This document shows, one piece after another, positions 11,111-63,050 of a stretch of 64,000 nt of DNA (position 1 is its first letter; every line of letters starts with the position of its first letter). The DNA is from Chara braunii. Its lineage: Eukaryota > Plantae > Charophyceae. The stretch covers positions 5,185,085 to 5,249,084 of the forward strand of contig BFEA01000029.1 in NCBI GenBank assembly GCA_003427395.1. Reading direction: 5' to 3'. A program made the translations under genes and the position numbers. The notes below the pieces were generated by a model. That model saw only the letters and a list, made by a program, of their open reading frames with translations, made no database searches and had not been told where the DNA came from.

Positions 11111-13436
11111 ATTTGTAGTAGTAATTTCAGACATAACGTTTTCATGTTGGGATTGTTTAGTAATTTCACCACTAGGTTTTGCCCTGCCTGTTCCCCCTGA
11201 TTGGGGTAAGGTGAATTTTCTTTATCTCGTTTTTTCACGAGTTGTTTTTTCCTAATTGGGGATTTTGAACATTGAATTTTGCAGACGCTTTAGTGGGGAT
11301 AGGACTTCGGAGGTTATGGCTGGAACTTTGGTAGGCTGGGGGGTTTTGAGACTCCAGGGTAAAGACATACGGTAGTTACCTACAGCAGGTCTGAGATCCG
11401 TCTGGCCTAAGTTAGGGGACAAGCCAGGGGAAGGATGGTAGGACTGTGAGCCTGGGCTCCGCCTGGCCTTGGGTAAGCTAGGGGAAGGAGAGATAGGGCT
11501 GGCCAGTTGTGGGTATAGACTACTAGTTAGCTGTCCCCGAACCCAGGGGTCTGTTATAGGGGAAGGTTATTCTACAGGGGTGTTGCATGGTGGGAGGCAG
11601 TAGCCCTATTGGGAGTAGGGCAGATTGGGGATTGTCTGAGTCTGGGGCCGGGGTTGGAGAGTTGGTCGCCTTCAACCCCAGCAGGGGCAGACAGGGACAA
11701 GGGGTGAGCAAAGGCAGCCTCTAGGATGGGATTGGTTGCCTTCGCGGATGAGGTGGAGGGAGGGGAGGGGATCTGTTCTATGTTGGGGCCGAGGGATTTT
11801 CCTCGGTGGAGGCAGCATGAAATATGGTACAGTGGGTATGGATTGGTTTGAGCTATGACCAATGGAAGCGTATCCTTTTCATGATCTAATAAACTCAATG
11901 TGTCAAAAAAGATCTGATAATTTCGATACAGTTCAACACTTCAAAACCAGCCATCCGCTGCTTTACAATCTTGGCAGCACCTGGTCTTCTTCTTTATTTA
12001 GGATATAGGAATTCAGGGATTGTCAAACCTGGACTAATAATTGTTGAAGTTGCTTTGTTATGTACTCCTGGATTGCCAATGCCAGAACAACGCTGGTCGG
12101 AGTTGGGGCATAGCCCTGTAACCTGCAATTGGCAGGGGTGGGAGGCCTTGTAGAGAGATCTGGGGTTTGTTGAGGGAGGAAAGCAAGCCAATGGTGAACC
12201 AGGGGGGGCTACCCTGACAACTTATGGGGTGGGGTTAGTCTGGGTAGTGACAAGAGATCAGCTACGACAGTGGGGGGATAGGTTTGTCTTGTTCGTGAGT
12301 TGCAATATCCTGGTAAGGGAGAGCTTGGAGTTTTTCAGGATTAGGAGTCCAGTGTGGCTGACTCAGCATAAGTAGATATATTCTTTTCTCATCATCACTG
12401 GTATCATTAGTATCATCAGCATTAGAATTTTCGAAGGTTTCTGATTTCGTAAGTGCTTGAAGCACTCTATTCTCAGGTTTTTCTCATCCGAAGCCGGGTA
12501 ATGGCCGCAATGTTGTAAACTGATGTATGTTCATATGGGACGCTCGGCCCGGTGTCGAGCGGCTGCCCAGCAGCCGAGGGTATTTCCTGAAAAAAAAAAA
12601 AAAAAGAACTCGGTCTTTGTTGCCTAATTTTGCATGGTTTGGACGCATGATTGCCTGAGACTGATGGGTTTCAAGGGACTTCGGGGGTCTAGAGGCCTTG
12701 TGCTAACGATTGGGAAAGGGCGAGAGAGGGGGGCAATGTAGGCCGTGAGAGGGAGCGGGCGGACTGCAAGAATCCGAGTGTTTGGGGGTTTGGTCCGAAG
12801 TCCGACAAGAAGGAGACAAATTCTGTGCGGTGGCTTGAAGAACTGAAGGGCTGAGGGATAAAGTGAAGGACTTAAGAAGTGACTAAGGATGGCGATGTGA
12901 ATACCGCACGGTATCTATGTGACCCGGCGCCTACCCAAGGGTGGAACTAGGAGATCCGGGCGGCCTACATTGAAAGGCCAAGAACCCCCAGCAGGAGGAA
13001 TGAAATCAGGTCACCCCGGGGAGATGACGAACTTGACTCTGGGCGCACCCGGCTTGGTACGGACTAAGGGCGATGGAGGCGACCAATTTCAGAAGAGCTC
13101 GGGCCGAAGCGGTGATGGGGACGAGTCACACTTACGTGAGCGGGAGTTTCGAATGGCAGGCTACTTCAACAAAGAAAGGAATGACGGTAGGGGTTTATAA
13201 TTGGAATTTGTTAAAGCTACGGAGGAGGGCAGGTGAAGGAAGCTGGGGGGTTGGACCCCGATAAAGAGGGGGAGATATGTCAAGCAAGTGAGGGTCTGGG
13301 GTATGGCGGAAGAAAAGGGAAATGAGAAAGCGGGGGGGTTCTATTCATAGCCACAACNGATCGGAGGTGCCAAGAGAAAGGGTGTTCATAGATAGGTAAC
13401 CAACTTGGCGGTGGCTGCAACCGATGTCTGCATCAG

Positions 13437-13957
13437 TGGGAATGAACTTGGGCCTGGTATGCAGGCCGATACTTTCACGAATTATTTGGCCTGAGAGGCT
13501 GGCCTGCGCGCACGTTTTTTGATAACTGTCCGGAAGTATGATCTCATGGCACTCTCGACAGTTGGGATGAACCAGGGCCTGGTATGCAGACCGATACTTT
13601 CACGGATTATATGGCCTGAGGAGCAGGCCTGCTCACACGTTTCTTGATAACTGTCTGGAGGTACGATCTGATTCCACTCTCGACAGTTTGGATGAACCTG
13701 GGCCTGGTATGCAGGCCGATACTTTCATGAATCATTTGGCCTGAGAGGCTGGCCTGCACGCACGTTTCTTGATAACTATCCGGAAGTACGATCTGATGGC
13801 ACTCTCGATAGTTGGGATGAACCTGGGCCTGGTATGCGGGCCGAGACTTTCGCAAATTGTTTGACCTGAGAGGCAGGGCTGAGCATACGTTTCTTGATAA
13901 GTGTCTGGAGGTGCTGTCTGATGGCACTCTCGACCGTTAAAATGAACTTAGGCCTGA
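13437..13957. repeat. ~125-bp tandem array (~4 units) in the LTR U3 (copy at ~31912-32432)
   Basis: gatgaacc.gggcctggtatgc recurs at ~13440, 13565, 13690, 13815, and partially at 13940. Confidence 0.9.
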
Positions 13958-14187
13958 CGCTCAAGCAGAGGTCTCCGAGGATTTTTTCGAAATTGTCGAA
14001 GGTTATGTGATGCGGCTCATATCAGTTATCATGTACCTGAGCCTGGTGTACAGGCCGATGCATCCAATAATTTTGTTGTTATTATCTGTCTGAGGTCGCA
14101 CTCACGAAAGCTTGGGTAAGGAGGCTATTGGTTGGTGGAGAAGGAGGAACTGGGGATTGATCACGGGGAAGGATGGGAGGAAAAAGG

Positions 14188-14194
14188 TATAAAA
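14188..14194 (+). promoter_or_regulatory. Putative LTR TATA box (copy at 32666-32672)
   Basis: TATAAAA conserved in both LTRs, followed ~150 bp later by a (GA)n tract. Confidence 0.5.
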
Positions 14195-14337
14195 GAGAGG
14201 AAGTGGGATAGATTTAGAGAGGAGGCGCACAGGAGAAGGGGCAGGCACGAAGCGCACGCACAGACTAGTGTTCCGCGCTCGTAGCGAACTGCGTAGCGCT
14301 GCACCCGATCTCTAGAGGGAGAGAGGGAGAGAGAGCC

Positions 14338-14339
<2 letters not shown>

Positions 14340-14398
<59 letters not shown>

Positions 14399-14505
14399 AG
14401 AAGTACGGCCATAGCCAGAGAGAGGGAGAGAAAGAGAGGGAGAGACAGAGAGATAGGACGTACGGCCATAGCCAGAGAGAGAGCGGAGAGAGAGACAGAG
14501 AGAGT
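14340..14505. repeat. (GA)n microsatellite in the LTR (copy at ~32790-32905)
   Basis: Long AG dinucleotide run. Confidence 0.95.
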
Positions 14506-14524
14506 GAAGTGCTGCCCTCTGTTC

Positions 14525-15380
14525 CCCGTGAGTGCTTCGCGCCCCCTTAACCGAGCACCACAGATATGACCAAGTGATATTGTCGGTTCTCCGTGGAGCG
14601 CTTCACGCTCTCTGTACATGTGCAATACGTGCTACCAAGTGCAGATGTTGATGACCGAGGGATATTGTCTGCTCTCTGTGGAGCGCTTCAAGCTCTCCGT
14701 ACCTGCGCCATCCGCGCGACCAAGAGCTGATGCTGATATCCGCCCGTCGTGAGCGCTTCATGCTCTCCCTACCAAGCTCCATACTTGCGACCAGGTGATA
14801 TTGGTTGTTCTCCGTGGAGCGCTTCACGCTCCCTGTACCTGCGCCATACGCGCGACCAAGAGCTAATGCTGATTTCTGTTCGTTGTGAGCGCTTCACGCT
14901 CTCTGTACCTGTGCCATACGTGCGACCAAGTGTTGATGCTGATTTCCGTTTGTTGGGAGCGCTTTACGCTCTCCTGATCGAGCTCCACACGTGCGACCTG
15001 GTGATATTGTCTGTTCTCCGTGGAGCGCTTCACGCTCTCTGTACCTGCGTCGCACGTGCGACCACGAGCTGATACTGATTTTCGTTCGTGGTGAGCGCTT
15101 CACGCTCTCCTTGTCAAGCATCATACGAGCGACCACGGGATGTTCTCTGTCCTCCGTGAGCGCTTCACGCTCTCGGTACCTGCGTCATATGCACGACCAG
15201 GAGCCGATCGTCATGCGAACGACCGAGTGCTGATTTCGGTTTAGTGTGAGCGCCCTTCGCTCTTTGAACCTGTGCCATACGCACGGTCAAGTATTGTTCA
15301 CTGTCCCTGAGAGCGTTCGCGCTTTCTGCACATGTACGAGCAAGAGTCGTCCGCGCTCCTCACTGAGCTCCCTTCGAGTG
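14525..15380 (+). repeat. Minisatellite of ~12 units (65-90 bp), each with palindromic core GAGCG-CTTCA-CGCTC (copy at 33476-34075)
   Basis: Core seen near 14530, 14596, 14681, 14751, 14817, 14887, 14958, 15023, 15093, 15158, 15248 and 15312. Confidence 0.9.
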
Positions 15381-16049
15381 ACCGAGGGTTGTTCGCCTTT
15401 CAGAAGACGACTTCTCTCTTCCTGTACCATACTCAGGACCAGAAAGGGTCTTCGCAGCTTCGGGAGGTTTTTACCGGCGCTGGACCATTCTATCGTCCTT
15501 TTTTTGTTCTGTTTTAATCAGCTCCCCATTCGAATCTGTTTGGTGGCGTTCGACTGTGACTAGGCTATTCTGCATTTTCTTTCAGCTCACTATCCAAGTC
15601 TTTTTGCCACGGCTCGACCGCGGCTGGTTTATTCGCTTGCTTTTCTCAGAAGTCTGTTCGGTTCGCAGAAAAGACCTCGGGATTCGCTCTGTTGAGACCA
15701 AGCTCTTCAGTTTTTTCTTTCATCCTCAAAGACCGTTGTCTTCTCCTGATCACCAGCGTGAGGCTGTCAGCCATTCCATCGGCGCTCCCTCCTAGGGGGC
15801 GGTAGGTCGACAGGTGGACGGAAGCAAATGCGAACTAGAGAAAGGGATGAGTGAGAGAGAGAGAGAGAGAGTAAAGAAAGGTGAGAGAAGAAGAGAGGGG
15901 GGGAAGAGAGCTGCCGCTTGCGAACGTCTGTGGTTTCTCAGGAGAAGTAGAAAGAGAGAAGCTCTCAGAGGGAGAGGGAACGCAAGTTGAGGAGGCTACT
16001 TCGACGGGACCCCTCCATGAGCGTGCTGGGATGAGCTGGTCGCCATCTA

Positions 16050-16470
16050 TAGCTCGTACTTTGGTAACTTCAGTCCCCTCATTGCTCTTTGGCTTTACAG
16101 CTTGCCGAATATATAGTTGCTCTTTGGTTCCGAACTTGTCAAGGCTCTTTGCTTGTTGATCTTGTTGTCGTCTCCAGCTCGTTGTTATCTGTGTACTTTG
16201 GTAACTTTGTTTCCCCATTGCTCTTTGGCTCTACAGGTTGCTGAACATGTAGTTGCTCTTTGGTTCCGAACTTGTCGAGGCTCTTTGCTTGCTAAGCTTG
16301 TCGCCGTCTCAAGCTCGTTGTTATTTGTGTACTTTGGTGACTTTGTTTCCCCCTTGCTCTTTGGCTCTACAACTTGCTGAACATGTAGTTGCTCTTTGGT
16401 TCCGAACTTGTAGAGGCTCTTGGTCCCACAACTTGCTGAGCTCGTGGTCGCCTCGAGCTCGTCACTGTAC
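16050..16470. repeat. 136-bp tandem array in the LTR U5 (copy at ~34735-35290 has one extra unit)
   Basis: ttgctctttggttccgaacttg recurs every 136 bp (16117, 16253, 16389 in the 5' LTR; 34802, 34938, 35074, 35210 in the 3' LTR). Confidence 0.9.
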
Positions 16471-17199
16471 GTGTCCCCTGATCTCAATTAAGTCAATTCC
16501 TTGATTTCACGTGGCTCTTTGGACTTGCCGCCGTCGCAAGCTCGTTTGTTATCCTTGTTCCCTACCCTCAGTTAAGCAAGTTCTTTGTGTTTACGTTGCT
16601 CTTTGAGCACAGATCACATACCGCGAGCTCAACAAGCTCAGCAAGTCCTTCGACTTTGCGATTGCTGGCTGGCCGTCCTTTCTAACACGTTGACTCCACT
16701 AACACTGTTGACAACTCTCGAGCTTGTCGACCAAGCTCGTTGATTTTACCAGCAATATTCACAGCTCGCCGAGGTTGTCATTACTCCTTAGGTGTTACGG
16801 GCGAGGGTTACAGCTCGCTGAGCCGGGCGGTCGGTAAAAGGGCGATTTCCCAGCTCGTCGCATCTTGAGTTAGCTGGTTCTCAGTTGATATTCCCGGGGC
16901 GAGGAACGGTTCGGTGCCTGTGACCCGGTACCCCCCCCCCCGTTCTCGGGGGCGGAACGAACTCGACACCGGTAAGCCGCGGAAAGGAAAGCTTAGCCGT
17001 CGGACAAAAGCTAATGGGAAATACGTAAGACGCCGGGTCATTCAAAAGCTCTTATCTGCGCCCCCGGTAGAGGCCACAAAGCCACTAACTTGCTCCCTCG
17101 CCTGGGATAGAGCGTGGCCATCGAGTAGAAGGAGAAAGGGGGGGTCCTGAGAAGGCGAGACGGGAAGGCTGACTGGTCAGAGGGACAACCCTGACAAAG

Positions 17200-17216
17200 T
17201 GGCGCCGTTGCCGGGG
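17200..17216 (+). promoter_or_regulatory. Primer-binding site complementary to the tRNA-Asp 3' end
   Basis: tggcgccgttgccgggg 3 nt after the LTR end; this PBS type is also used by plant Athila elements. Confidence 0.92.
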
Positions 17217-18808: not shown

Positions 18809-19169
18809 ATGAGTTTGGAAGCCGTTCCGGAGTGGATTAACGTGTGTACGTACGGAAGTGTTGACGTGTGGTGTTTACTTCTTCCGGCTATGGATGGGTG
18901 ACTTTGATGTGGGTGACTATGTAGAGGAGGAACAAGATCAAGGAGAGGACTTCCTTCGTGGGTGGGAAGAGGCGATAGGCCACTCTCGTGGTTCGCGGGA
19001 GGAATTGAGGGGTTATGGATGCAAGTATTTTTACTCCCTTGGATACCGAACCTACCCCAGAGGTGGTCGCCCGGCGCTGGTAATTCCGGACGCTTATCTC
19101 GATGGATCAGATGAATGGAAAGTGTTAGTGGGGATTGTGGAGAGAGTGGTGAAGGCGATGAATCCATGA
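18809..19169 (+). pseudogene. Accessory ORF A (~119 aa, family I), one 1-nt frameshift
   Basis: ATG 18809 MSLEAVPEWINV…VDVWC; an extra T near 18875 shifts into YFFRLWMGDFDV…AMNP*. Aligns end-to-end with ORF B. Confidence 0.75.
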
Positions 19170-19531
19170 GCTTGAGGCCTTTGGAGTTTCAACCTGCAGG
19201 AATTAGTGTAGGAGATCGAGGCGGAGTAGAGGTGTGGTGCTATACCTTGTACTGGTGGACCGGCCACTTCGACATAGCCTTGTACGTAGAAGAGGGTGTT
19301 GATAGAGAGGCATGATACTTGGATAGCTGGGAGGAAGCGGTCGGTCATGCACAACTCGAGAGACAACTGCTGGGGGCTTACGAGATTAACTACTTCTACT
19401 CGTTGGGGTGTAGGACGTATTCACGAGGGGGCAGGCCTGTTCCTACTATATCGGAAACCTTCTTAGACGGATCGGACGGGTGGAGAGCACTAGTTCAAAT
19501 CATAGAGGAGATAATCCAAGGGGATGGTTAG
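19166..19531 (+). pseudogene. Accessory ORF B (~121 aa, family I), one internal stop
   Basis: ATG overlaps the ORF A stop (ATGA). The frame continues through TGA 19313-19315 to …EIIQGDG*. Confidence 0.8.
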
Positions 19532-20258
19532 GATTATCGAGGGTACTGAAGAAGAAGGGGCTCTAATAGAGAAAGCAGATTTAAGCAAAGTCAGGGAGTG
19601 CTTTAGCGTCCCTTTAGATCACCGCACCGAGAGGTATTTAGCCGGCCGGGAGAGGGGATTGGAGCTAGAACGAGGGGTTTTCCTTTGGGCTCGTTTCGCA
19701 GTAGGGACTTGGGAAGGGGACAGGTGGTCCCGGAACAGGCCCCATAACGGGAAGAGACCCAGGCGAACGGTGATCCGTGCGGAAGGAACTGTCTACTTAA
19801 GTAAGGAGGTCTGGGTCGATTACGTCACTCACTTGGTCCTGGGTTGATACCGTGCGGATCATTGGGAGGCACGAGCGGGTCCGATTTTGAGGCAGATCTT
19901 TGAGGCGGAGCCCCTTAGACACTGCCCACCAGTTGAGGTAAGGGTGACCTGCGCGCAAGACGAAGAGTACCCCCGCGCCGCAGGGTGCATCAGAGTCATA
20001 TTCCTGTCATTCGTTTTTCAAAGAGTGAGCGGAAAGGAGGAGCGATACGAGAGGGTTGTGCGGTCCATAGTGCGAGAAAGGGGGTGGCAGCTCTCTGTTA
20101 GGTCGCTCCATTGGTACTACACCTATTGTGTGGATAACCCGGTACCATACGGGATCAAGGCATGTAGGATTCATGCGGGGATCTTCAGGGAGTCTACCCG
20201 GGACCGCGAGGGAGGAAGGGACTACGGATACCAAAGAGTCTTCGGGGTACCACAGTGA
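19524..20258 (+). pseudogene. Accessory ORF C (~244 aa, family II), one internal stop
   Basis: Track ORFs 19524-19847 and 19887-20258 are in the same frame across TGA 19845-19847; colinear with ORF F. Confidence 0.78.
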
Positions 20259-20271
20259 ATGTTCTAAATGA

Positions 20272-20924
20272 ATGGTGTTCCATGATAGAGAGCAGGGATG
20301 CTTCTTAGAGTCCTCTTTAGAGGACCGTGAGGCCCTTAGGCTGGTCCCTAGCAACGGGGAAGTCCCTGATTGGGAAAGGATAGAAGGGGGGAGGTCCACG
20401 GTTGGTGGGGGATTCGTGTGGGTAGAATCCAAAGAAATAGAAGGCCAAGGTCTTGGGCGAAGTCTTGAAGTAACCGCGGTTATTTTCATAGCACCGGAGG
20501 CTTGGACAAAGCTTGTAGTACCCCTAATTCTGGGACAAGGGGGTGGGCTGGAAAAATTGTTGCGAGAGGCGAGAGAGGTAGAGGGGAATGGATGAGTAGG
20601 GTTAGAGAGCGATTTGCATTCGTGTCCGTGGAAAGGGAGAGGTTCACGAGGGAAAGAGAGCTTTCGAGGTCAAGTTACCCATTAACTGTGAGGGTGCCGT
20701 CTTACGTATTCCCTAGAGCAAACGAGGGAAAGATAGTGTGTCCTTCAGGGACCTGTGGATACTGTATACGCACTGCATCGATCAGGGTATTCCGCCGCAA
20801 AAAACTCTGGGGTGTTTTCAGGAGATTAGGATCTCTTGAAAAACCCTTCACTCTCTCTCCTGAAAAATATCGCAGGTGGGTCTTTAGAACGACGATAGCA
20901 GATGGTGAAGTTTATGCTCAGTGA
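20272..20924 (+). CDS. Accessory ORF D/E (family II): two ATGA-coupled ORFs (20272-20595, 20592-20924) or one frameshifted ORF
   Basis: The D part has GFVWV…EVTAVIFIAPEAWTKLVVPLILGQ; the E part has VPSYVFPR resembling the C-terminal half of ORF C. Confidence 0.65.
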
Positions 20925-21630
20925 AAACGGGGTGGTGGAATCGATAGAGGCCAGTGACACCGAGAAGGTTTTAGTCCCGGGGGACCCTCAAGTGATTCCT
21001 TATTGGATGAGCGTTGAGAAAGGGGGATTGCTCAGAGAAGGGGCCTACGTGTGGGTTCGAGCTCGAAGGCTCACTTGGAAGGAAGGTGTGGAAAGAGGAG
21101 GTCCCCCCGACCTCGGTCGCTTCCTGGAGATTCGGGCTACCATTTTTTTCAACGAAGAGGTGTGGACCGAAGTCTGGAGAGGATTGGTGACCGGGCAACT
21201 TACGCATTTTGAATACCGAGAATCCGCGAGGCTGTTGGCAAACAATCTAGTGTTAGCTGACTACGAGGAAGGAACTTTCGAGTCGTGGTCACTAGTGTCC
21301 TTCGCCGAGCCAGGAGAGGTCCCTCGCGCGTCCGGGGTCCTCCACCCTAACCTACCCCAGTTCGTGGTCAGTTCGTTCCTAAGAGATTCAGAGGAGAAAG
21401 TAGTAGCAGTGCTTAGAGCGGCTTAAGAATCCGGGGTGCGGGCTAGGGGTTTGTTCTGGCTTTATACTCGGTGCGTGGACGCGGGAGTTCCCCCAAGAAG
21501 TGAGTTGTCCGCCATATTCGGGAGGTTGAGAGAGTTTGAGGGGCTCCGATCCCTCGTCGCGGACGTTCCGTACGCCCGCCTCTTCGGAGAAGAGCAGGTG
21601 TCTAACCGACGGGGTTTCGAGGGTCGATGA
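20902..21630 (+). pseudogene. Accessory ORF F (~242 aa, family II), one internal stop
   Basis: 20902-21426 and 21436-21630 are in frame across TAA 21424-21426; motifs GAYVWV, ATIFFNEEVW, LFWLYTRCVD, YARLFG. Confidence 0.78.
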
Positions 21631-22385
21631 TAAGGGGGATACCGAGAACTCTCTAGGCATCCATAAAACCCGTGGAGGATACCGGGGAGGTTGTCAGTGT
21701 CACTCTGCCTAGTGTCAGATTGACTGAGCCGACTAGGACTCTCTTGCGAGAAGAAGGGGAGATCCGGCGCGGTAAGGCTTTCATACGATTTGCAGTGAGT
21801 CGCGAAGGGAAGGTAGTAGTTGGAGAAGCCCGAATCTTCCTTTCGAAGAAGGGCCTTGTTGAGATAGCGCATAGCTTACGGATTGGGCAGGACCCTCTCT
21901 GGGACGCTCGAGCCGTGAGAGGCCGGCTAGGAGAGTTAGTAGAGGAATTGAGGCCTCACGAAGGGTGCGACGAGGAATGTCTAGTGACCTACGAGGGTTG
22001 GGAAGAAATACCGCGGTTCCTTTCCAGTGAGCCGGTAGAGGTCCCCCGTTTCATTTTTGAACGGGTTTACCCCTCCGAGGCTGTTAAGAGGGCGGTAGAA
22101 AGAACGGTTTCCATCCTAAGTCAGTTCAGGTTCACGGGATCGGATCTCCACATCTTGTTAACTTGGTGTTTTCGAGATCCTTATAAAGACGATTGATAGA
22201 CTCTAGAGGACCTGGGTTACGCCTTCGAAGGTTAGGGTCGATATGCGAGGGAGTCTAAGATATCGTGGAGATACTTAGGTAAGATCTGCGAGGGAGAGCT
22301 AGCGAGGTTGGACCCCTCAGACTTGATTCGGATAGCAATTGCGTGTCGTCGACGGAAGTTAGGGGATGATCGAGCCGGACCTTGA
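21627..22385 (+). pseudogene. Accessory ORF G (family II), several internal stops
   Basis: ATG 21627 overlaps the F stop (ATGA) and is in frame with track ORF 21672-22196. The read-through tail LGKICEGELARLDPSDLIRIAIA resembles the ORF I tail. Confidence 0.7.
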
Positions 22386-22554
22386 GGAGCTTGTGGGGCT
22401 GGATAGAGTAAGGGAAGAAGTTCACCGGATCCTTGCTCTGTGCTGGGAGGAAGAAAGGAGGGCTAGGCCGGGGTCCTTAGCCAGGATCAAGCTACTTGAG
22501 ACAACTGCAATCGATATCCTAGACGAGGTAACGATAGATCTTCTCACGCAGTGA
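22366..22554 (+). CDS. Small accessory ORF (62 aa), or frameshifted tail of ORF G
   Basis: ATG start, same composition as neighbours, and fills the gap between G and H exactly. Confidence 0.45.
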   Translation: MIEPDLEELVGLDRVREEVHRILALCWEEERRARPGSLARIKLLETTAIDILDEVTIDLLTQ

Positions 22555-22558
22555 GGGG

Positions 22559-23035
22559 ATGAGAGCTTCGTTTGTGTCCAATAGGATCCGTTGGGGATTA
22601 GAGACCTACGAGGACGGTAGCGAAGTTAGGGTTGAAGGGAGTGCAGAGCTTAACCCGGAATTGGGAGAGGACCGGGTAGTCCGCGCCGAGACAAAATTTC
22701 TAGTGGAGGTCCGACGACTGGCCTTATGGAAAAAAAGAAGCTGGACCACGCTAGCTACCTTTTCAGTCCACATTAGAGACGCGAGTGGCGTGAGGTTCTC
22801 GAGGACTTGGAGGGAGCCTTTGTTGGAAGTAGAAAGAAAATTCGAGGAGGACTCTAGGTATCTAGGAACGCCACTGACATCTAGGGCACACCTTGTGGAG
22901 ACCCGATTTTGGTATAGGTCGGGAGATTACGAAGAGGCTTTGCGCCGAACACTGGAAGAGGACGAAGAGACTGGACACGCCAGGTGCGAGGACTCGCTGG
23001 CAGCGGCCGCCGCAAGGTTGACCGACGTAAGGTGA
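22559..23035 (+). CDS. Accessory ORF H (158 aa, intact, unknown function)
   Basis: ATG 4 nt after the previous stop; uninterrupted; no visible similarity to families I or II. Confidence 0.65.
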   Translation: MRASFVSNRIRWGLETYEDGSEVRVEGSAELNPELGEDRVVRAETKFLVEVRRLALWKKRSWTTLATFSVHIRDASGVRFSRTWREPLLEVERKFEEDSRYLGTPLTSRAHLVETRFWYRSGDYEEALRRTLEEDEETGHARCEDSLAAAAARLTDVR

Positions 23036-23043
23036 AGACCCGG

Positions 23044-23939
23044 ATGATTCGATACGAGAAGGGGGCCCCGTTGGTACCATAGAGAGGGCTTGGACGTGGG
23101 GAGGAAGATATGGAGTAAATCTCCCGAGAGTTAGAGGGGATTGATGTGACTACCGAGTTCTTCGAAATTTACGAGCAGGAGACAGTGGTCAGGTTTTCAG
23201 TGGCGTCCGAGGGGAACAGTTGCACGAGAAAGGCGGAAATTTTTTTGTCCCCTGACGCCCGGCTAATCTTCGCAACTGAATTGGCGGAAGGGAAAGATCC
23301 TCTAGGCATCGCCAATAGGGCCCTAGAACGAGTAAGGAGATTGAGAGGGGGTGGCACGGAGAGCCCCGTGATTGACAAGGTAGAGTACCGAGGGAGGACA
23401 GAAGTTCCAAGGGCAGCCCATGGGAGAACTTGGGATATCCCTACCTGGGCCTATCGACTGCTCTATGCTGACAACGAGACCGTGAGGAGAGTTTTGTTGA
23501 GGGGTCAGGTGATAGAAAAATTCCCGTTGGGTGAAGAAGGGGGACACGAGTTATTCACCTAGTGTTGGGAGTCGAGAGAAGACACCGACTTCGAGTGGTG
23601 GGCGCGCGTTGGGGAGTTCATCAAGCCCCTGTTCTCCGGACAAGCTGGTGATGTGGAGTCGTGGACAGGGATTTGATTAGGAGGTGTGCGCAAGAAGGGA
23701 TTAGGGGCATCTCGAACCTGGAGATCGCGAATCTTGCATTGGCTGCTAGCGAGGAGAAGAAACTGAGGGATTCTTGGTGGACGGTGACCAGCGAGGAGTC
23801 GGAGGGAGAGGGTGCTGACGAGGATTCTAGTGAGGAGAAGGGGGGATTGGAGGAAGAAGAGAATTCAGAAGATACCGCAGACAGTAGTGAGAGGGACGAG
23901 CCGGAAGGTAACGCGGACGATAGTGAGGGAGGCGACTAG
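23044..23939 (+). pseudogene. Accessory ORF I (family II) with acidic C-terminal tail; stops and frameshifts
   Basis: Starts MIR like ORF G. VRFSVASEG…KAEIFLSPDARLIFATELAEGKDPL aligns to G IRFAVSREG…EARIFLSKKGLVEIAHSLRIGQDPL, and ELFT*CW to LLTWCF. Ends in a D/E/S-rich tail. Confidence 0.72.
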
Positions 23940-23958
23940 AAATTGCCAATAAGGGTGC

Positions 23959-26388
23959 ATGGAGAGTGAAGTAGAAGCTGGTCTCTCTAGTCCGCCGGAA
24001 ACCACTGAAAGAAGGGGGATAGTGAAGAGTCCCGAGTTGGGGGCCAGTCTAAGTAGGGTAGTGGAAGAAATGACAGAGGGAGCAGAGACGCTAGATAGGG
24101 CCGAGGGGGGTCCGGAAATGGCTTCGGGAGAGAGAGAGGCCTCGGAGCGGCAAAGAGCTGGCACGGAAGTGCGAGTGCACAGGGATGTGGGGCCGCAGGT
24201 GCCGGTAAACGAAGGGGTCACTGAAGCTGCAAGAGGCATTCCGGTGGAATCCCGGTGGGCGGACCTAATGGATGCGGAAGCAAGGTTAGAGGAAGCATGG
24301 GAATTTCCTAGAGATAGACAGGGGTATCGACCACTTAGGAGGGAGGAAGAGGAGTGTCAGGACAGGAGAGACTTAAGAGAAGGGAGGTCAACAGAAGCCG
24401 GCGGTAGGCCGCGGAGATGGGTCGAAAGGGTCCCGGAGGCCGTCACCGGTGAGAGGCAGGCTTTGGTGGGGCCAAGAACTGGCGCGGAAATGCGAATGTC
24501 TGTGCGAGAAGGGGGGATCGAGAGCTCGAGGGGCCTTCCTATAGAGTCTCGGTAGGCGGATTTACCGGACGCAAGAATGGGAGAAACTCTAGAATTTCCA
24601 AGAGATAGAGTAGGGTACCGGCCACCCAGGAGAGAAGAGGAAGGGGGACCGAGTAGAAGGGACCTTAGAGACGAGGGGCCGACGGAGGCAGGTAGTAGGC
24701 CACGAAGATGGGCCGTAAGAGAAACGGATGCTCCCTGGGTTCCCGGCGAGATAACATGCGTAAATCACGGGGTGGAGGCTTGGAGGAGCTTTAGGGGGCA
24801 GGGCCACGCTCGGTGGGAGACGGATTGGCCGGATGAGCGGGGCCGCTACGGGGAAGACCCCTGGGAACCGCCTAGACCCCGGGGCCGGGTGGAGGAGACG
24901 GATCCCTCGTGGTACAAGCCGTACGATCCGGCAATCGATGGGCCAATGGAAGGTCCCTATTTTCGCCGATACGACGACCGACGAGTCCCCTATTACGACG
25001 TCAACCCATTTTTCTTCGACGGACGGGATGTGACTGGGTTCGTGGAGAAATGGGAGAGTTATGCTTACCGTAAAAAATTCTTCGAAAGAGAGTGGATAAA
25101 CTATTTTATCCAGCACTCGGACCCCGAGTTAGACCCCGCGATTCGGGCTATCTACCCCTCAGACGGACGATGGAGGACCTTCAGGGTGACCCTATTGCAG
25201 ATTTTCGCCTGTGATGACCTGATCCCGACCGTGGAGGGCTTGCGACGAATTACAAAAGGGGAACGAGAGAGCTTGGTAGCCTTCACCCGTAGGTTCAAGC
25301 GCCTGTCCCAAGCCCTAGTGGATAGGGGTATGCTGTCTGAAGTAGATAGGTGCGTGATGTTCATGCTGCACCTACCCGAGGAAAAGAGGAAAGAGGTTCT
25401 TGAGACGGCCTCGAGGGATTCTGCCAATTTCGAGAAAGTCGCGGAGGTGGTTTTCACGGGGGGAGGAGTAGATGTGAGGGAACACATGAAAGAGACCTTG
25501 GACATGGCACTCTGCAACATGCGAGGCACGCGGAACGATGGTCCCAGGGGAAACGATAGACTGCCCCCGGGTCCACCTGGTCCCCGGTGGGGAGAACGGC
25601 CAACCGGATGGAGGAACGAATCGAGTGGCCAAGGAAGTTGGAGGAACGACAGGGAGATGAGGGGGAATCGTGGTTCTGATTGGGGGGGTTCCCATTGGAA
25701 GGATGCTAGGGATGGAAGGTGGGGAGACGCCCCTCAAGCAAGGGCTTCTGGGCCGCGATCGGAGGTTAGGGCGCCACCACCGCCAGCACCTCCACCACCG
25801 GCTCCGCCGGCGCCTATAGCGGCAGCCACGCAAGGGGGTCCACGTCCCAACAACCCACAAGCCCGAAGCGGGTGTGTCTACTGCAATGAAGAAAATCACA
25901 TTAAAAGGGACTGCCCTTATCTCACGGAGGCCTTAAGGTTGGGAGTGGTCAAGCTGAATAAGAACAAGTGGGTTGTGTGGGGGGACAACGGAGAGGCGGT
26001 CTCCTTTTACCCATCAATGAAGGTGAACGTGGACAAGAGGGTGGCCCTCCAGGAGGCTAGGCTGGGGAAGAAACCGAAAATCGGGAGCTCCTCCAACATA
26101 GCTCATATCCAAATGACGGAGTCACCAGGGGGGGTGTCCATTAGGGAACCCTAGGTGTCAAGCATTAAGTTCATATAAACCCAGCCCGAGGAAGAGAGGT
26201 CTTGCCTAAGGGTGAGAACGCACGTTGGGACTGAGACGTCCGAGAGCCAAGCGAGCGTGACGGAAGGCACGGAAGTAAGGAGCGGCGACAATGACCAACC
26301 GATGACCGATGCAAAAGCGGTGGAGGAAAAGAAGGAAAAACCCACCTCACCCAAATCGCCTAAAAAGAGGGGATAAAAAAAAATTGAA
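23959..26388 (+). pseudogene. gag: gag (with long N-terminal extension and CCHC zinc knuckle), internal stops
   Basis: 23959, 24577 and 26389 share one frame. Capsid-like FDGRDVTGFVEKWE…KGERESLVAFTRRF; knuckle CVYCNEENHIKRDC. Confidence 0.9.
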
Positions 26389-29300
26389 ATGAAGTGCACT
26401 CTGGATGAGATAGACACGGTAGCACCTCTTAGGAGGACCCTGATGCAGCCTATGCAGTGCACACTTTTGGAATATCTAGCCGCCAGCAAAAGCGTCAGGG
26501 AAGAACTCCTAAGCATCACGAGGAAGGTAAGAGTCCCGCTCGCAGGGGGGCCCAAGGTGCCGGTGGAAGGTCCCGCCAAGGAAGAAGTACAGGCCTCCCG
26601 CATTACCATGAAGGAGCTACCTGCCAACTTCTTCTCGGGAGAAGAGGCCGAGAAATTCTATGTGTTAGGTAGTGGCCAGCTCCAGGCAGTGGTAAGTGGG
26701 AAGAAAATGAGGGCTCTAGTGGACAATGGGTCCGAGTCTACGGTGTGTAGGGAATAGATCGAGGGGTATCGATGTCGATGGTAGTGGCGGATAACAAGCT
26801 GCAACCGGCAGAAGGGGTGTGTCATAACCCCGTGATTGAGGTCGCTGGTATAGAGGCCATGGTCCCGATCTTTTCGGTAAAAGAGTGCTCCTCCGAATTG
26901 ATCCTCGGAAGGACCTGGCTGAGCGCAGTACACACGACCACGGTTGATTTGTCGGATGGAAGTCAGACCCCCTCGATCCAAAGTCCTGATGGAATCCGAG
27001 TGGTCCTAAAGACCGTAGACGCGCAAGATGAACGTAACCGGACCAGCATCGCTAGATGCAAGGGGAGTCCGTCGAGGGTGTGCCGAGTCTGTCTGAAGGA
27101 GGTGCCCTTGACGGATATGGGACCCAAGGGAGACCAATTGGAGGTCGAGGACGTGGGGGATAGGATTGTAATTAACGGTATGGGTTACGAGAAGGAGGAT
27201 GAGGAGGAGGAGTTCGGTGGATGCGTGAGTATGTCTTTTTTGGAGGTATCCCCCTAGCCGGCGGAATAAAGAAGCACAAAATCGTGGCGGAGAAAGTAAA
27301 ACCCGCCGAGGTCAGCCGAGATAGAACGGGGTTAGCTACAATATCGGAGGAGGAGATAGTTGATATCATCCGGAAAAGGAAAGAGACAGAAGGGCAAAGG
27401 ATAACGGCCGATAGATTGGCCAAAATGGATATAGGAGATGGGAACCTCACGGAGGAAGAGAAGGGATTCATAGCAATGACCCTCAGGGGGTGCGATAAGG
27501 CCATCGCCCTTAATGACTCCGAGAGGGGGAGGATCGACCCAAGGTACGCTAAGCCGGCCCGGATCCACACGGTCCCGCACGTGCCTTGGAAGGATAGGCC
27601 CCAATGGAAGTACGCTCAAAAGGAGAAGGAGGAGATAGTGACTTTTATCAAGGAAAAAATTAGAACGTTCGTTGCGGAACCTTGCGAGAGTGCCTACTCC
27701 AATAAGTGGTTCTTTCTAAGAAAGGGGGGTAGCAACAAACTGTGATGGATTCAAAACCTCCAGAGGACCAATGCGGTCACCATAAGGGACGTGGGATCTA
27801 TACCCGAGGCCGACTTGCTAGCGGAAGGGTCGGAAGGTCGCTCGATATACTCGATCTGCGATCTCTTCTCTGGGTATGACGAAATCCCCCTAGACTATCG
27901 TGATAGGCATATGACCGCCATGCACACGCCGCTAGGGTTGGTCCAAATGATGGTGGTACCAATGGGCTGGACGAATGGGGTAGCGGTGTTCCAACGGGCC
28001 ATGATTGCAGTCCTCAAGGAATTCATACCGGATAAGGTAGAGGTCTTCCTAGATGACCTCCCGATAAAAGGACCGGTCGAGCGAGACGAGACGGAAGTTT
28101 TTCCCGGAGTGAGGAAGTTCGTGGTGGACCACATGAGCGACGTCAGGGACGTCCTTGTGAAACTGGACGATGCAAATCTCACGGTAAGCGGGACTAAGAG
28201 TCGCTGGGGCATGTCCTCCATCAAGATATTAGGGTTCATTTATTGTAAGGATGGGCGGAGGTCCGACCCCGAGAAATTGTTAAAATTAATGACCTGGCCG
28301 TCACCACTCAAATCCATAACAGAGGTCCGACAATTTCTAGGGGTTGTGGGCTACTGGAGAATCTTCATAAAGGCCTATGATGAGAAGGTGGAGCCCCTTA
28401 GAAGACTCCTTCGGAAATTGGAAGGATGGGTTTGGGGGGAAGCACAGGAAGCGGCCATGGAAGCTTTGAAGGTGGAGTTCCGCAAAGGTGGAGAGGTCCT
28501 AGGAGTTTCGTTCTTCGAAGACGAGGAGAGTCGCCCTTTCATAGTGTCCACGGACGCTGGACCTCATTCGGTGAGAGTCCTCCTGTCACAAAAGGACGGA
28601 GAGGGGAAAGAGAGACCGTTGCGATTTGAAAGCCGGACCTTGAACCACGCCGCTTGAACCACGCCGAGAGAAATTATAGCCAATTCAAAAAGGAGGTGTT
28701 AGGGGTATTGCATTGCCTAAAGGCCTTCCGTCATTATCTATACTGACGACGATTTCTCCTAAGGGTGGACCCGACGGCAGTGGCCGCGGTCCTCCAAAAA
28801 GATTTCTCGCTGACCGATCCTACCATCGCACGCTGGATGATTCATATTAGGCTTTACGACTATAGGGTCGAGAGGATATCAGGGACCAAGAGCCAGGTCG
28901 TGGACGGATTGTCCCGGCTTCCTATTCGTGAGGAGGACCTACCTAGGCTTAAGGAGGAAGAAGTGACAATGGCCAAGGAGGAGATAATGAAAGTCGCCGC
29001 TAATAGGGCACGAATAGCGGGGAGCAGCCGAGGGGAAGAAGGGGGCCCAATGACTTTTCTCACAAATCTCTAGGACGGGAAGTACCGGGACATAGGACCG
29101 TACCTGGCCGGTAGGGAAACATGGACTGAAAGAATCCAGCGAGAGGCGCTGGGGTATTGCTTGCGGGAAGGCCATCTCTTCAAAAGGCCCACCAAGTTTG
29201 CGATACCCATGAGGGTACTGTGCGATCCAGAGGAGAGAAGGGCGGTCATAGAGGAGTTACACGATGGGGTCGTTGGAGGTCATAGGGGGGTGAAGGGTAC

Positions 29301-30647
29301 TTTCGATAAAGTCCGTAGGCTTTATTGGTGGGACGGGCGATACACGAAAGTGGAAAAGTACTGTTCAACATGTGAGGCTTGCCAGAAGAGGGCTACGGTT
29401 CGATACAAGGAACCCTTGGTTCCGTCGCTTCCCACGGTTCCGGGAGAGAAGGTCCATGTTGACTTAGTAACCATGCCAAAGGGGATCGGCGGACTTCGGT
29501 ATATAATTAACACGCGGGATGACCTCACGGGATTCGTAGAGCCAAAGGCCGTTAAGAAGAAGACGGCAGAGGAGGTAAGTGAATTTCTCCTTGAATATAT
29601 CGCGCGGTACGGATGTGTTGGGAGAATAGTCATGGATAGGGGCGCAGAGTTCTTGAGCCAAAAGATCAAGGCATTATTGGAAAAGGCAGGGATCGGGGTG
29701 ACCTATACGATCGCTTATCACCCCCAGAGCAATGCACCGATAGAAATGGGTCACCAGACGCGCTTGTGGACGCTCTGGCGAAATGGTGCAAAGGTCGCGC
29801 GGAACAGTGGCTGAGATATTTGCGGTACGCGGTTTGGGCCGATAATATCACAGTCAAGTCCAGTACGGGATACCCTCCTTACACCCTTTGGTTCGGTAGG
29901 CATTGTCCCCTTCCCATCGAATTCCACATCGACACTCGGACGAGTGTCTCATGGAAAATCAACATGACCCGGAATGAACTGTTGGAGGCACGGATCCAAC
30001 AAATAGCTGAGAATTTGGATACCGGTGTAACCAAAGCGGGAGAGAACATCGAGAGAGAGAAGGTGAAAGGAAAAGATAGGTGGGACAAAAATCTGCGGGT
30101 CTGAAAGGCGCCGATAGGGGTTGACGACCTAGTGCTGATGCATGATTCGTCACTAGAAAATACCTGGAGCAGGAAATTGGCAAACCGATGGATGGGGCCG
30201 TATAAGGTCCTAAAGAGATTGGATGGGGGGGCTTACATGCTCGCGGAATTAGATGGGAGTAGGCTACGGGATCCTGTCGCAGGCGCTCGTCTCAAAATCT
30301 TTCGATCACGAGAGACCCTTGAGGAAGAGTCGAGACAGAAAGGAAAAGAAGCTATTGACACACAGGTGAGCATAACCGACGAAAAAGGGGAGACCTCCAA
30401 ACAAGAAGACTCTTCTCGACCCCCAAGGAAAGTGTATAAGGTTCGGAAAACTGCCCTACCAAAGACCCCTAGGAAGAACAAACGACTGAGGGAGGATGAC
30501 GGAGATACTGACCGATTAAGGAAACGCAGGTTGAACGAAATGAGGAATGCGTCAAGAAAGGCCCTGAGACTCAAACGTGAGAGAGAGGAGAGAAAACGGA
30601 AGAGAGAGAGGCGCGAGAAGAGGATGAGGAGACGGAGACGGGCGTAA
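26389..30647 (+). pseudogene. pol: pol: protease, RT, RNase H, integrase (stops and frameshifts)
   Basis: PR ALVDNGSE…LILGRTWL; RT DLFSGYD…PMGWTN…VFLDDLPIKG; RH FIVSTDAG…ERNYSQFKKE; INT H-x6-H…CSTC, VHVDLV, MDRGAEF, YHPQSNAPIE, GPY motif. A 14-bp duplication at 28639-28666 frameshifts RH. Confidence 0.96.
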
Positions 30648-31006
30648 AAAGGGGAAGGGAATGGTGTACCATAGTTAGGAAAACGTGTTCCGGGAAAGAG
30701 GTTATATTGAAGGGAAAGTTGTACCATAATATACCATAGTTAGAGAAACGGGTGTCGTAAGGGGCAATGAGTCGTAGTCCTGATAGGATATTGTACCATA
30801 GACTGATGTCATAGGGTAGCGATGTGTCGTGGGTCATGGATGGCGTCGTGATGAAACAGTAGGGTCAAGTCCGGCAAAAAGAAAAGGACAATGTGATCTA
30901 ACCGGGGAGATGGGTTGGAACGGGAGAAACTTTTCATGGGTAAACATTGGGCGAGGGGAAACGGTTAAAAATAAAGAGGTCACGAAAAAGACTCGCCGGG
31001 GACGAC

Positions 31007-31028
31007 GAGAATTGGGGTGTGGGCTGGC
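31007..31028 (+). promoter_or_regulatory. PPT-like G-rich tract before the 3' LTR
   Basis: gagaattggggtgtgggctggc abuts the LTR start; it is not purely purine. Confidence 0.5.
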
Positions 31029-32814
31029 TGTCGGGCAGCTGCCTAGCAGCCGAGGGTATTTCCTGGAAAAAAAAAAAAAAGAACTCGGTCGTTGTTGCCT
31101 AATTTTGCATGGTTTGGACGCATGATTGTCTGAGACTGATGGGTTTCAAGGGACTTGGGGTGTCTAGAGGCCCCGTGCTAACGATTGGGAAAGGGCAAGA
31201 GAGGGGGGCAATGTAGGTCGTGAGAGGAAGCGGGCGGGCCGCAAGAATCCGAGTGTTTGGGGGCTTGGTCCGAAGTCCGACAGGAAGGAGACAGATTCTG
31301 TGCGGTGGCTTGAAGAACCGAAGGGCAGAGGGATAAAGTGAAGGACTTAAGAAGTGACTAAGGATGGCGATGTGAATACCGCACGGTATCTATGTGACCC
31401 GGCGTCTACCCAAGGGTGGAACTAGGAGATCCGGGCGGCCTACATTGAAAGGCCAAGAACCCCTAGCAGGAGGCACGGAATCAGGTCACCCCGGGGAGAT
31501 GACGAACTTGACTCTGGGCGCACCCGGCTTGGTACGGACTAAGGGCGATGGAGGCGACCAATTTCGGAAGAGCTCGGGCCGAAGCGGTGATGGGGACGAG
31601 TCACACTTACGGGAGCGGGAGTTTCGAATGGCAGGCTGCTTCAACAAAGAAAGGAATGACGGTAGGGGTTTATAATTGGAATCTGTTAAAGCTACGGAGG
31701 AGGGCAGGCGAAGGAAGCTGGGGGGTTGGACCCCGATAAAGAGGGGGAGATATGTCAAGCAAGTGAGGGTCTGGGGTATGGCGGAAGAAAAGGGAAATGA
31801 GAAAGCGGGGGGGTTCTATTCATAGCCACAACNGATCGGAGGTGCCAAGAGAAAGGGTGTTCATAGATAGGTAACCAACTTGGCGGTGGCTGCAACCGAT
31901 GTCTGCATCAGTGGGAATGAACTTGGGCCTGGTATGCAGGCCGATACTTTCACGAATTATTTGGCCTGAGAGGCTGGCCTGCGCGCACGTTTTTTGATAA
32001 CTGTCCGGAAGTACGATCTGATGGCACTCTCGACAGTTGGGATGAACCAGGGCCTGGTATGCAGACCGATACTTTCACGAATTATTTGGCTTGAGGAGCA
32101 GACCTGCTCACACATTTCTTGATAACTGTCTGGAGGTACGATCTGATGCCACTCTCGACAGTTTGGATGAACCGGGGCCTGGTATGCAGGCCGATACTTT
32201 CACGGATCATTTCGCCTGAGAGGCTGGCCTGCGCGCACGTTTCTTGATAACTGTCCGGAAGTACGATCTGATGGCACTCTAGATAGTTGAGATGAACCTG
32301 GGCCTGGTATGCGTGTCGAGACTTTCGCAGATTGTTTGACCTGAGAGGCAGGGCCAAGCATACGTTTCTTGATAATTGTCTGGAGGTGCTGTCTAATGGC
32401 ACTCTCGACCGTTAAAATGAACTTAGGCCTGACGCTAAGGCAGAGGCGTCCAAGGATTTTTTCGAAATTGTCGAAGGTTGTTATCTGATGCGGCTCATAT
32501 CAGTCATCATGTACCTGAGCCTGGTGCACAGGCCAATGCATCCAATAATTTTGTTGTTATTATCTGTCCGAGGTCGCACTCACGAAAGCTTGGGTCAAGA
32601 GGCTATTGATTGGTGGAGAAGGAGGAATTGGGGATCGATCACGGGGAAGGATGGGAGGAAAAAGGTATAAAAGAGAGGAAGTGGGACATATTTAGAGAGG
32701 AGGCGCACGGGAGAAGGGGCACGCACGAAGCGCACGCACAGACTAGTGTTCCGCGCTCGTAGCGAACTGCGTAGCGCTGCGCCCGATCTTCAGAGAGAGA
32801 GAGGGAGAGGGAGC

Positions 32815-32905
<91 letters not shown>

Positions 32906-35900: not shown

Positions 35901-36006
35901 TGCTCCCTCGCCTGGGATAGAGTGTGGCCATCGAGTAGAAGGAGAAGGGGGGGGGGCTGAGAAGGCGAGACAGGAAGGCTGACTGGTCAGAGGGACAACC
36001 CCGACA
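31029..36006 (+). repeat. 3' LTR (includes an N gap)
   Basis: Begins tgtcgggcagctgcctagcagccgaggg, ends gggacaaccccgaca, followed by the CCGG TSD. Confidence 0.96.
32906..33475. other. Assembly gap (N run)
   Basis: Ns following the (GA)n tract. Confidence 0.99.
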
Positions 36007-36045
36007 CCGGTCTCCAGCACGTGCTGCTCCCCACGAAGACTGGAG

Positions 36046-62375: not shown

Positions 62376-62499
62376 CCTATTCCTAATCAACTTAACCTCT
62401 ACCTGTCTCATCGTCCTACCTAAGGTTCTCTTTCTACACCTTGTTTCGTTATGCCCCCTTTGGTCATGACCTTTGGTTGGTGAATGAGATCGAGGGAAA

Positions 62500-63050
62500 A
62501 AAAGGGTGTGAGGCGGTTGGATATGGGGGATGGGTAAAAAAAATGGAGGAGGGAGATGGTGTGAGGTGGTTGGCTATGGCGAATGGGTGAAGGAGATGGC
62601 GGAGGAAGATGGCGTGAGGTGGTTGACCATGGTGGATGAGAGAAGAAGATGGAGGAGGAAGATGGTGCGAGGTGGTTGGTTATGGTGGATGGGTGAAGAA
62701 GATGGAGGAGAAAGATGGTGTGAGGTGGTTGACTATGGTGGATGGGTGAAGGAGATGGAGGAGGAAGATGGTGTGAGGTGGTTGGCTATGGTGGATGGGT
62801 GAAGGAGGTGGAGGAGGAAGATGGTGTGAGGTGGTTNGCTATGGAGGATGGGTGAAGAAGATGAAGGAGGAAGATGGTGTGAGGTGTTTGACTATAGTGG
62901 ATGGTTGAAGAAAATAGAAGAGGAAGATGGTGTGAGGTGGTTGTTCATGGTGGATGGATGAAGAAGATAGAGGAGGGACATGATGGGAGGTGGTTGAGCA
63001 TGGTGGATGGAAGAAGAAGATGGAGGAGGAAGATGGTGCGAGGTGTTCGA
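62500..63050. repeat. Purine-rich minisatellite, ~52-bp unit, ~10 copies
   Basis: gaggaagatggtgtgaggtggttg.ctatggtggatgggtgaag repeated. Confidence 0.9.

Follow-up and report, generated by a model that had tools for sequence, protein, structure and literature searches.

A Ty3/gypsy LTR retrotransposon of 23.5 kb in Chara braunii (12553-36006 of the window, the whole 64,000-nucleotide stretch that was analysed) encloses an accessory cassette of nine extra ORFs, all on the sense strand and tightly packed from the primer site to gag, and five of these nine (C, D, F, G and I) belong to a single unclassified protein family, having arisen by ancient duplication (Table 1). Both LTRs have TG...CA ends and are bordered by a target site duplication, and the domain order, gag followed by protease, RT, RNase H and integrase, is as for Ty3/gypsy; in the Pfam scan RT, RNase H and integrase scored above the cut-off, and protease and the zinc knuckle below it. 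The tandem-repeat arrays of the 5' LTR have periods of 125, 70/136/206 and 136, and frame J reads on into gag in gene models P0011 and P0014.

Table 1. Positions in the window of the element's features and accessory ORFs
Feature	Position	Strand	Remarks
Target site duplication CCGG, 4 bp, left copy	12549..12552	.	same 4 bases at 36007-36010
5' LTR (TG...CA), 4.6 kb	12553..17196	+	three tandem-repeat arrays
Primer binding site	17200..17216	+	starts TGGCGCC; 3 nt past LTR; presumably tRNA-Asp type
ORF A, two-member family with B	18809..19169	+	frame change near start; start by eye
ORF B	19166..19531	+	one stop; own ATG overlaps stop of A (ATGA)
Paralogue C, 244 codons	19524..20258	+	one in-frame stop
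Paralogue D	20272..20924	+	three frame changes in window copy; natural counterparts P0011, P0013, P0014
Paralogue F, 242 codons	20902..21630	+	one stop; natural counterpart P0004
Paralogue G, 252 codons	21627..22385	+	four stops; own ATG overlaps stop of F (ATGA)
ORF G2, separate, 62 codons	22366..22554	+	overlaps end of G
ORF H, 158 aa, intact	22559..23035	+	unrelated to C/D/F/G/I family
Paralogue I, ~297 codons, acidic tail	23046..23939	+	stops and frame changes in window copy
gag with long N-terminal extension and zinc knuckle	23959..26154	+	Pfam scan
pol, fragmented: protease, RT, RNase H, integrase, SH3-like	26389..30647	+	Pfam scan
3' LTR	31029..36006	+	contains 570-N assembly gap

Mutual identity among C, D, F, G and I is 17-28%, and four pairs gave local alignments whose real score was reached by none of 1000 shuffles (z 21.0 for C-F, 15.1 for G-I, 15.0 for D-F and 11.7 for C-G). 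The family is united by single linkage, because the other six of the ten pairs were not significant in pairwise local alignment (z 0.1-1.9). Pairings of a family member, or of A or B, with ORFs outside the family (A, B, H, J; A-B excepted) numbered 25 and all stayed at z ≤1.2; A and B form a separate two-member family (z 38.8). Profile comparison with natural homologues strongly linked D-F (98.7%, E 5e-16), C-F (97.2%, E 4e-11) and G-I (96.5%, E 1e-9), placed C-D at 76% (E 2e-5) and C-G at 73% (E 3e-5), and was not significant for F-G, F-I and C-I (E 0.13-0.28). At the DNA level no repeat was found among the paralogues (best off-diagonal blastn match 18 nt, E 0.7). The preliminary description of this region had proposed five deeply diverged paralogues lacking an obvious DNA-level repeat, and both claims agree with these results; its quoted core motifs were all located in the ORFs named (5/5). 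The sizes it gave, 220-290 aa, correspond to spans that are present but are read-through, as all five ORFs are interrupted and G measures 252 codons without G2. It had named C/F and G/I as the closer pairs, but the tree joins D to F (94) and leaves C outside. The W.YT.CVD-type motif that it had reserved for C and F extends further, since D has W/L.YT.C.D too (in another frame in the window copy, plainly in P0013) and T.C is common to all five, and the recurring E.PR motif is seen in relatives of D (ELPR in P0011 and P0013) but is degenerate, ELSR, in D of the window copy.

Gene models from other copies cover D, F, G and I without a break over a large part or the whole of their length, among them P0004 (residues 1-239 unbroken and 83% identical to F) and the counterparts of I (P0001 and P0005-P0010); no second protein copy of C was found among the homologues searched. 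ORF G2 is taken as separate from G because an independent copy shares the frame change without an indel. The order of the paralogues is identical in other copies and their number also looks stable. Summed DNA contig depth, a rough measure, was ~830-1640 for the cassette and 630-2730 for gag-pol, against ~11 for a single-copy GST gene, which suggests that the cassette is kept family-wide. Sense-biased family RNA was present in one of three stranded runs: two had almost no element reads (6 and 0), and the third had 603, of which only 5 were ≥99% alike to the window copy. A second gypsy family, with RT 47-58% and gag 24-28% identical to the window family, carries at least four paralogue types of the same domain, again upstream of gag. 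Its domain matches that of the window family in HHalign (96.6%, E 5e-10), 23 of 24 second-family domains scored above the best of 1000 shuffles with the window-family HMM, and each family has one acidic-tailed paralogue (I and R1, respectively). Judged from these sequences, the domain has apparently been multiplied separately in the two gypsy families. The proposal that the genes arose by ancient serial duplication within a transposable element is thus supported, given the low identity, the lack of DNA likeness, the enclosing LTR element, the constant order and the sister family's own set.

In a comparison that covered G and I among the paralogues and drew on probably a single independent copy (L001 and L002 overlap and agree in this region), whole-ORF dN/dS was 0.27 (0.15-0.49) for G and 0.17 (0.09-0.29) for I, the latter being the value of its core, with 0.89 in the tail of I, and reached 0.24 for G2 and 0.17 for H; changes were in excess at third positions, and shifted-frame controls gave 1.2-4.0. 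G and I are under purifying selection, without an arms-race signal at the level of the whole ORF. A protein-level conservativeness test put 17/17 family pairs above the neutral mean, but it is a weak test, flagging 10/17 family pairs against only 1/9 gag/pol control pairs. Arms-race effectors, each binding a different host defence protein with a surface under positive selection, had been the preliminary description's explanation, and would account for the deep divergence, for the separate multiplication in two families and for a somewhat quicker divergence of accessory parts than of pol when both are taken from the same models (I 75-79% vs RT 88-91%). We consider this unlikely, as it is at odds with the low dN/dS of G and I, the conservative lean of the substitutions and the stable order and number between copies. 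Low dN/dS and stable order are explained no less well by fixed genes that have subfunctionalised than by an arms race, and by analogy a counter-defence role of the paralogues is possible. The low dN/dS also counts against a running arms race within a counter-silencing reading.

All five paralogues are interrupted in the window copy, as might be expected if the cassette were passenger cargo, be it an envelope-like set of genes or a captured gene that was duplicated and kept with no function. The gag-pol of this copy is equally broken, however, and the LTRs are 4-6% apart (K2P 0.043-0.058), and we therefore place the decay of the accessory ORFs after insertion. Moreover, dN/dS is well below 1, and the homologues found number 46, of which 44 are gene models of Chara braunii and many of the 46 are fused to gag/pol. 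Env-like ORFs are recognised by a transmembrane helix and a place after pol; the paralogues lie upstream of gag and no membrane helix was found in them (best 19-residue hydropathy 1.76 in D, in a helix that is soluble in the model, and ≤1.32 in the others). The passenger reading is thus largely refuted and very improbable.

The domain is predicted to consist of a beta-meander with two helices and, after these, a helical domain, an alpha/beta plus helical layout which the F-type model has in common with the second-family AlphaFold model (pLDDT 82), and searches of Pfam, PDB and viral folds gave no fold or family match. The columns common to the nine subfamilies are P, L and G only, with no invariant D, E, H, C, S, K or R, and because no potentially catalytic residue is invariant, the paralogues are likely to be non-enzymatic; an improbable alternative is a divergent, perhaps GNAT-like, enzyme that would modify chromatin or host proteins. 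The four-strand plus helix repeat may resemble the PUR/PC4/Whirly nucleic-acid-binding fold. Such a likeness would suit subunits of a hetero-oligomer that binds, packages, exports or moves the element's RNA or particle, whether as a CERV-like export factor, an RNA chaperone or a movement protein in the giant cells of Chara. The constant order, a head-to-tail layout suited to stoichiometry, purifying selection and conservation confined to structural residues are all in keeping with a hetero-oligomer, for which CERV of Cer1 offers a precedent in the portion of the source cited (PMC10309623). The PUR alignment itself has the strand-helix motif in the expected register but is weak and not significant (score 13.6 against 13.2 for the best of 60 shuffles; HHalign probability 0.3-1.9%, E 0.03-0.4, against 16 bacterial DUF3276 proteins), PUR, PC4 and Whirly are absent from the best 50 VIA matches listed, and apparent separate multiplication in two families is unexpected for an ancient obligate complex, which leaves the hetero-oligomer a possible but somewhat unlikely explanation.

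We favour, with a probability of roughly 40%, a role of the paralogues as non-enzymatic binding proteins that would keep the element expressed, either via counter-silencing or via LTR activation, a proposal built on exclusion and analogy. The cassette ORFs may be translated from one sense RNA via stop/start overlaps, or from subgenomic RNAs, and each paralogue would have its own target, which could be element DNA or RNA, tandem repeats of the LTR for instance, or, on the host side, chromatin and silencing factors. The LTR tandem arrays parallel the repeat targets of VANC as given in the cited section of PMC5735166, and Pfam and fold searches yielded no sequence or fold link between the paralogues and VANC or any DNA-binding family.

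Elements of this kind are already known to carry extra ORFs, and the novelty, as far as the literature searched extends, is the multi-paralogue cassette, which was not found there. According to the sections cited, Ogre/OTA elements reach ~24 kb with LTRs up to ~5 kb, tandem repeats and extra ORFs of unknown function, and a 5'-forward extra-ORF class is recognised in OTA elements (PMC6317226, PMC6431247, PMC7264820). The window element resembles them in the features compared, large size, LTRs of several kb and extra ORFs (PMC6317226, in part), but the same sections give Ogre one or two extra ORFs, against nine here with five of one family (PMC6317226, PMC6431247, PMC7264820). The Ogre/Athila extra-ORF domains, namely the plant mobile domain PF10536, Transposase_28 PF04195 and Athila ORF-1 PF03078, had no Pfam match in any family member, the 4-bp target site duplication counts as a further difference from Ogre/OTA, and no additional archaeal-type RNase H (a Tat trait) was seen in the Pfam scan of part of the fragmented pol. 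Phygy elements share a 4-bp target site, NCGN, with the CCGG of this single insertion, but are described in the cited excerpt as short with a polyprotein filling the interior, whereas the window element has 23.5 kb and ~5 kb of extra ORFs (PMC6317226). Like VANC in the extracts cited, the paralogues are transposon-encoded, lineage-restricted and diversified accessory proteins accompanied by non-coding tandem repeats, but VANC belongs to the DNA transposon VANDAL and varies between transposon families rather than occurring five per element (PMC5735166, PMC13547354). VANC proteins are anti-silencing proteins, and no homology of the paralogues to them was detected by Pfam or fold. CERV of C. elegans Cer1 is likewise a novel LTR-retrotransposon protein other than gag, pol or env that serves the element's own expression, but in the part cited it is a single protein from a spliced mRNA, in contrast to the multi-ORF, unspliced-looking array here (PMC10309623). 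Giant Burro elements and bdelloid ORF3s are comparable in that the gypsy-like elements concerned are large and have many accessory functions, although in the passages cited what they carry in addition are captured domains that can be recognised, in the polyprotein or after pol (PMC6431247, PMC5408684), and not a series of paralogues of a single orphan fold upstream of gag as in the window element.

For plant LTR retrotransposons, the function of the extra ORFs is posed as an open question in the cited part of PMC7264820. Here, about a third of the element interior is given over to a single orphan domain in five selected versions, and investment in this domain by two distant families indicates a strong and repeated benefit. 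With many unbroken natural proteins, about a hundred copies and a confident model for which no matching fold was found, the family is a tractable set, and dozens of 'hypothetical' Chara braunii gene models are explained as transposon accessory genes. A further, separate question is how a stop-start array of nine ORFs is translated in a eukaryotic retroelement. A tentative, bolder reading is that a Chara Ty3/gypsy lineage may have evolved a virus-like multigene cassette, in which each of two families independently multiplied a new fold four- to five-fold and expresses it as a stop-start polycistron, with each paralogue acting against a different silencing layer or LTR repeat. If true, this would be a retrotransposon counterpart of VANC, and would help to explain the 20-kb elements that fill the Chara genome.

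The preliminary description had presented the accessory ORFs C, D, F, G and I as one family of diverged paralogues; all of its core motifs were found, and the paralogy is real. All five ORFs are connected via C-F, G-I, D-F and C-G, the four of ten pairs scoring above 1000/1000 shuffles, while the other six pairs are not significant and ORFs A, B, H and J (the frame continuing into gag) do not join the family in the same shuffle-tested alignments. Comparison of profiles built with natural homologues of the paralogues supported D-F (98.7%), C-F (97.2%), G-I (96.5%), C-D (76%) and C-G (73%), but not F-G, F-I or C-I, which were not significant, and the bridge between C/D/F and G/I (E about 3e-5) is thus the weakest link. 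Pairwise identities are 17-28%, and no DNA-level repeat was found among the paralogue ORFs, as had been stated. Since no paralogue is intact in the window copy, the lengths of 220-290 aa given previously describe read-through spans.

The paralogues lie in an element which is a member of the Ty3/gypsy group, with zinc knuckle, protease, RT, RNase H and integrase in the corresponding order, albeit fragmented (Pfam, 24577-30647). Its RT shares 88-91% identity with gene models of Chara braunii, which is therefore the probable host. Its two LTRs differ by a K2P distance of 0.043-0.058, its size resembles that of OTA elements, and its target site is Phygy-like: CCGG agrees with the NCGN target preference described for Phygy, meaning insertion at a CpG. 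The interval between primer site and gag holds nine ORFs in sense orientation (A, B, C, D, F, G, G2, H and I), and a near-identical ORF set spans 98.5% of 18858-24555. A/B and F/G overlap by ATGA, B/C, D/F and G/G2 overlap by 8, 23 and 20 nt, respectively, and the remaining junctions have gaps of 4-19 nt; in an independent copy the G/G2, G2/H, H/I and I/gag junctions are arranged as in the window. From these junctions, translation could proceed by stop-start re-initiation. The A/B pair is unrelated to C-I, and neither ORF has a Pfam match. One DNA-run contig links the end of ORF I (23819) back to just before ORF A (18653), and may mark a copy with a duplicated or rearranged cassette.

Features of the window, by position
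Feature	Position	Strand	Remarks
Reverse transcriptase remnant	4376-5179		second, distant; 25% identical to the element's RT
Target duplication	12549-12552 / 36007-36010		4 bp, CCGG
LTR retrotransposon	12553-36006		TG...CA ends; LTRs 4.6 and about 5.0 kb
LTR tandem arrays	13434-16421 and 31909-35242		three per LTR (125; 70/136/206; 136 nt); last (136-nt) array 2.7 copies in one LTR, 3.7 in the other
Primer site			first bases TGGCGCC
ORFs A + B	18809-19531		second pair of paralogues, with about 48% identity (z 38.8)
G2	22366-22554		orphan ORF, 62 aa
H	22559-23035		orphan ORF, 158 aa
gag N-terminal extension	23959-24732		internal duplication, about 53% identity over 110 aa
G-rich stretch	30995-31028		just 5' of 3' LTR; not a clean polypurine tract
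Glutathione S-transferase (GST) gene	53828-54697	-	single-exon; expressed in all three RNA runs; strand control
Tandem array	62442-63130		53-nt unit, about nine copies

Unbroken counterparts occur in gene models at other loci: F has P0004, I has P0001 and P0005-P0010, and P0003, P0011, P0013 and P0014 hold much of D and G. No protein copy of C was found. The counterparts stand in the same order as in the window, ahead of gag; as the models splice ORFs together, this shows order and not contiguity. The paralogues are real, selected genes. Pairwise counting with bootstrap over codons, using two short contigs with 83-84% identity to the window (probably one copy) and covering G, G2, H and I, gave dN/dS values of 0.17 (0.09-0.29) for the core of I, 0.27 (0.15-0.49) for G, 0.24 for G2 and 0.17 for H, the latter two thus also being under purifying selection. 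The acidic tail of I reached 0.89, and shifted-frame controls gave 1.2-4.0. At the protein level 17/17 pairs were more conservative in their substitutions than neutral simulation, ten of these with at most 2/150 simulations as high, although this test is weak since just 1/9 gag/pol control pairs passed. That the paralogues form a positively selected arms-race set, as suggested by their diversification, is unlikely next to these values. Accessory TE proteins are reported to be typically under relaxed rather than positive selection (PMC13547354). Summed contig depth in the DNA run, which is no copy number, was about 830-1640 for the cassette, 630-2730 for gag-pol and about 11 for the single-copy GST gene, consistent with a family of roughly a hundred copies of which the cassette is a regular part; that the paralogues are mere cargo is very improbable.

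A search of 1.84 billion representative sequences gave 10 matches. In one of these, the gene model P0016, the domain occurs as three repeats that precede a divergent gag-pol. The first 625 residues of P0016 retrieved 30 further Chara models, including 13 stand-alone proteins of 175-317 aa, and the domains of this second gypsy family (RT 47-58% and gag 24-28% identical to the window element) sort into four types, R1-R4. Both the C/D/F and G/I groups are matched by its profile. An alignment of the two sets over 170 columns reached 96.6% (E 5e-10), 23/24 R domains score above the best of 1000 shuffles with the window-family HMM, and 16/21 window-family domains do so with the R HMM. Chara braunii is the named source of 44/46 homologues. 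A tree of 36/45 domains over 170 columns (9 short rows dropped) separates (C,(D,F)),(G,I) from (R1,(R3,(R2,R4))), and on this sequence comparison the domain has likely multiplied separately in the two families, which is not firm because the near-root support labels (92, 96, one blank) were displaced by re-rooting.

Structures were predicted for the F-type (15 sequences, pLDDT 60.5) and R1 (31 sequences, pLDDT 82.5, pTM 0.75) subfamilies. Both models have a beta-meander, two helices, a further strand pair and a helical C-terminal domain, with secondary structure agreeing at 172/222 aligned positions and no helix/strand clash, although they are not independent as their alignments overlap. Neither fold matched structure or domain libraries (Pfam, PDB, viral folds), the in-register alignment with the PUR/PC4 repeat was not significant, and the paralogues have no membrane helix. 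Only P, L and G residues are common to all nine subfamilies, and the E.PR and T.C motifs are confined to the window's family or most pronounced there. An enzymatic domain is quite improbable; the paralogues would rather be non-enzymatic binding proteins with one target each.

Three oligo-dT runs compared with 13 kb of the element interior gave 6, 603 and 0 reads, and 5, 12 and 46 for the neighbouring GST gene, where first mates lie opposite the coding strand and the libraries are thus stranded. The 603 reads are evenly distributed, with a sense share of about 65%, rising to about 73% within the cassette (sum of depth bins), and derive from other copies, since 572 are <95% alike to the window copy. 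This suggests sample-specific transcription of the family, with read-through or some DNA carry-over possible.

Together, these data show an orphan domain that is conserved and soluble, has multiplied, and sits in a fixed cassette. By analogy, its proteins may counter silencing or trans-activate (probability about 0.4): the targets of VANC, the anti-silencing proteins of VANDAL DNA transposons, form tandem repeats (PMC5735166), and the LTRs of the window element each hold three tandem arrays. An RNA- or particle-handling oligomer, for which the Cer1 protein CERV offers a comparison (PMC10309623), is a more doubtful reading. The cassette is real, and any role in countering silencing or in trans-activation is inferred.

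Non-chromovirus Ty3/gypsy elements are known to reach 24 kb, to have LTRs of 5 kb and to carry extra ORFs (PMC6317226), extra ORFs mostly follow pol (PMC7264820), and Ogre has 1-2 of them (PMC6431247), compared with nine in the window element. In the literature listings searched, which did not cover the Chara genome paper, neither a cassette of several paralogues nor these Chara elements were found described.
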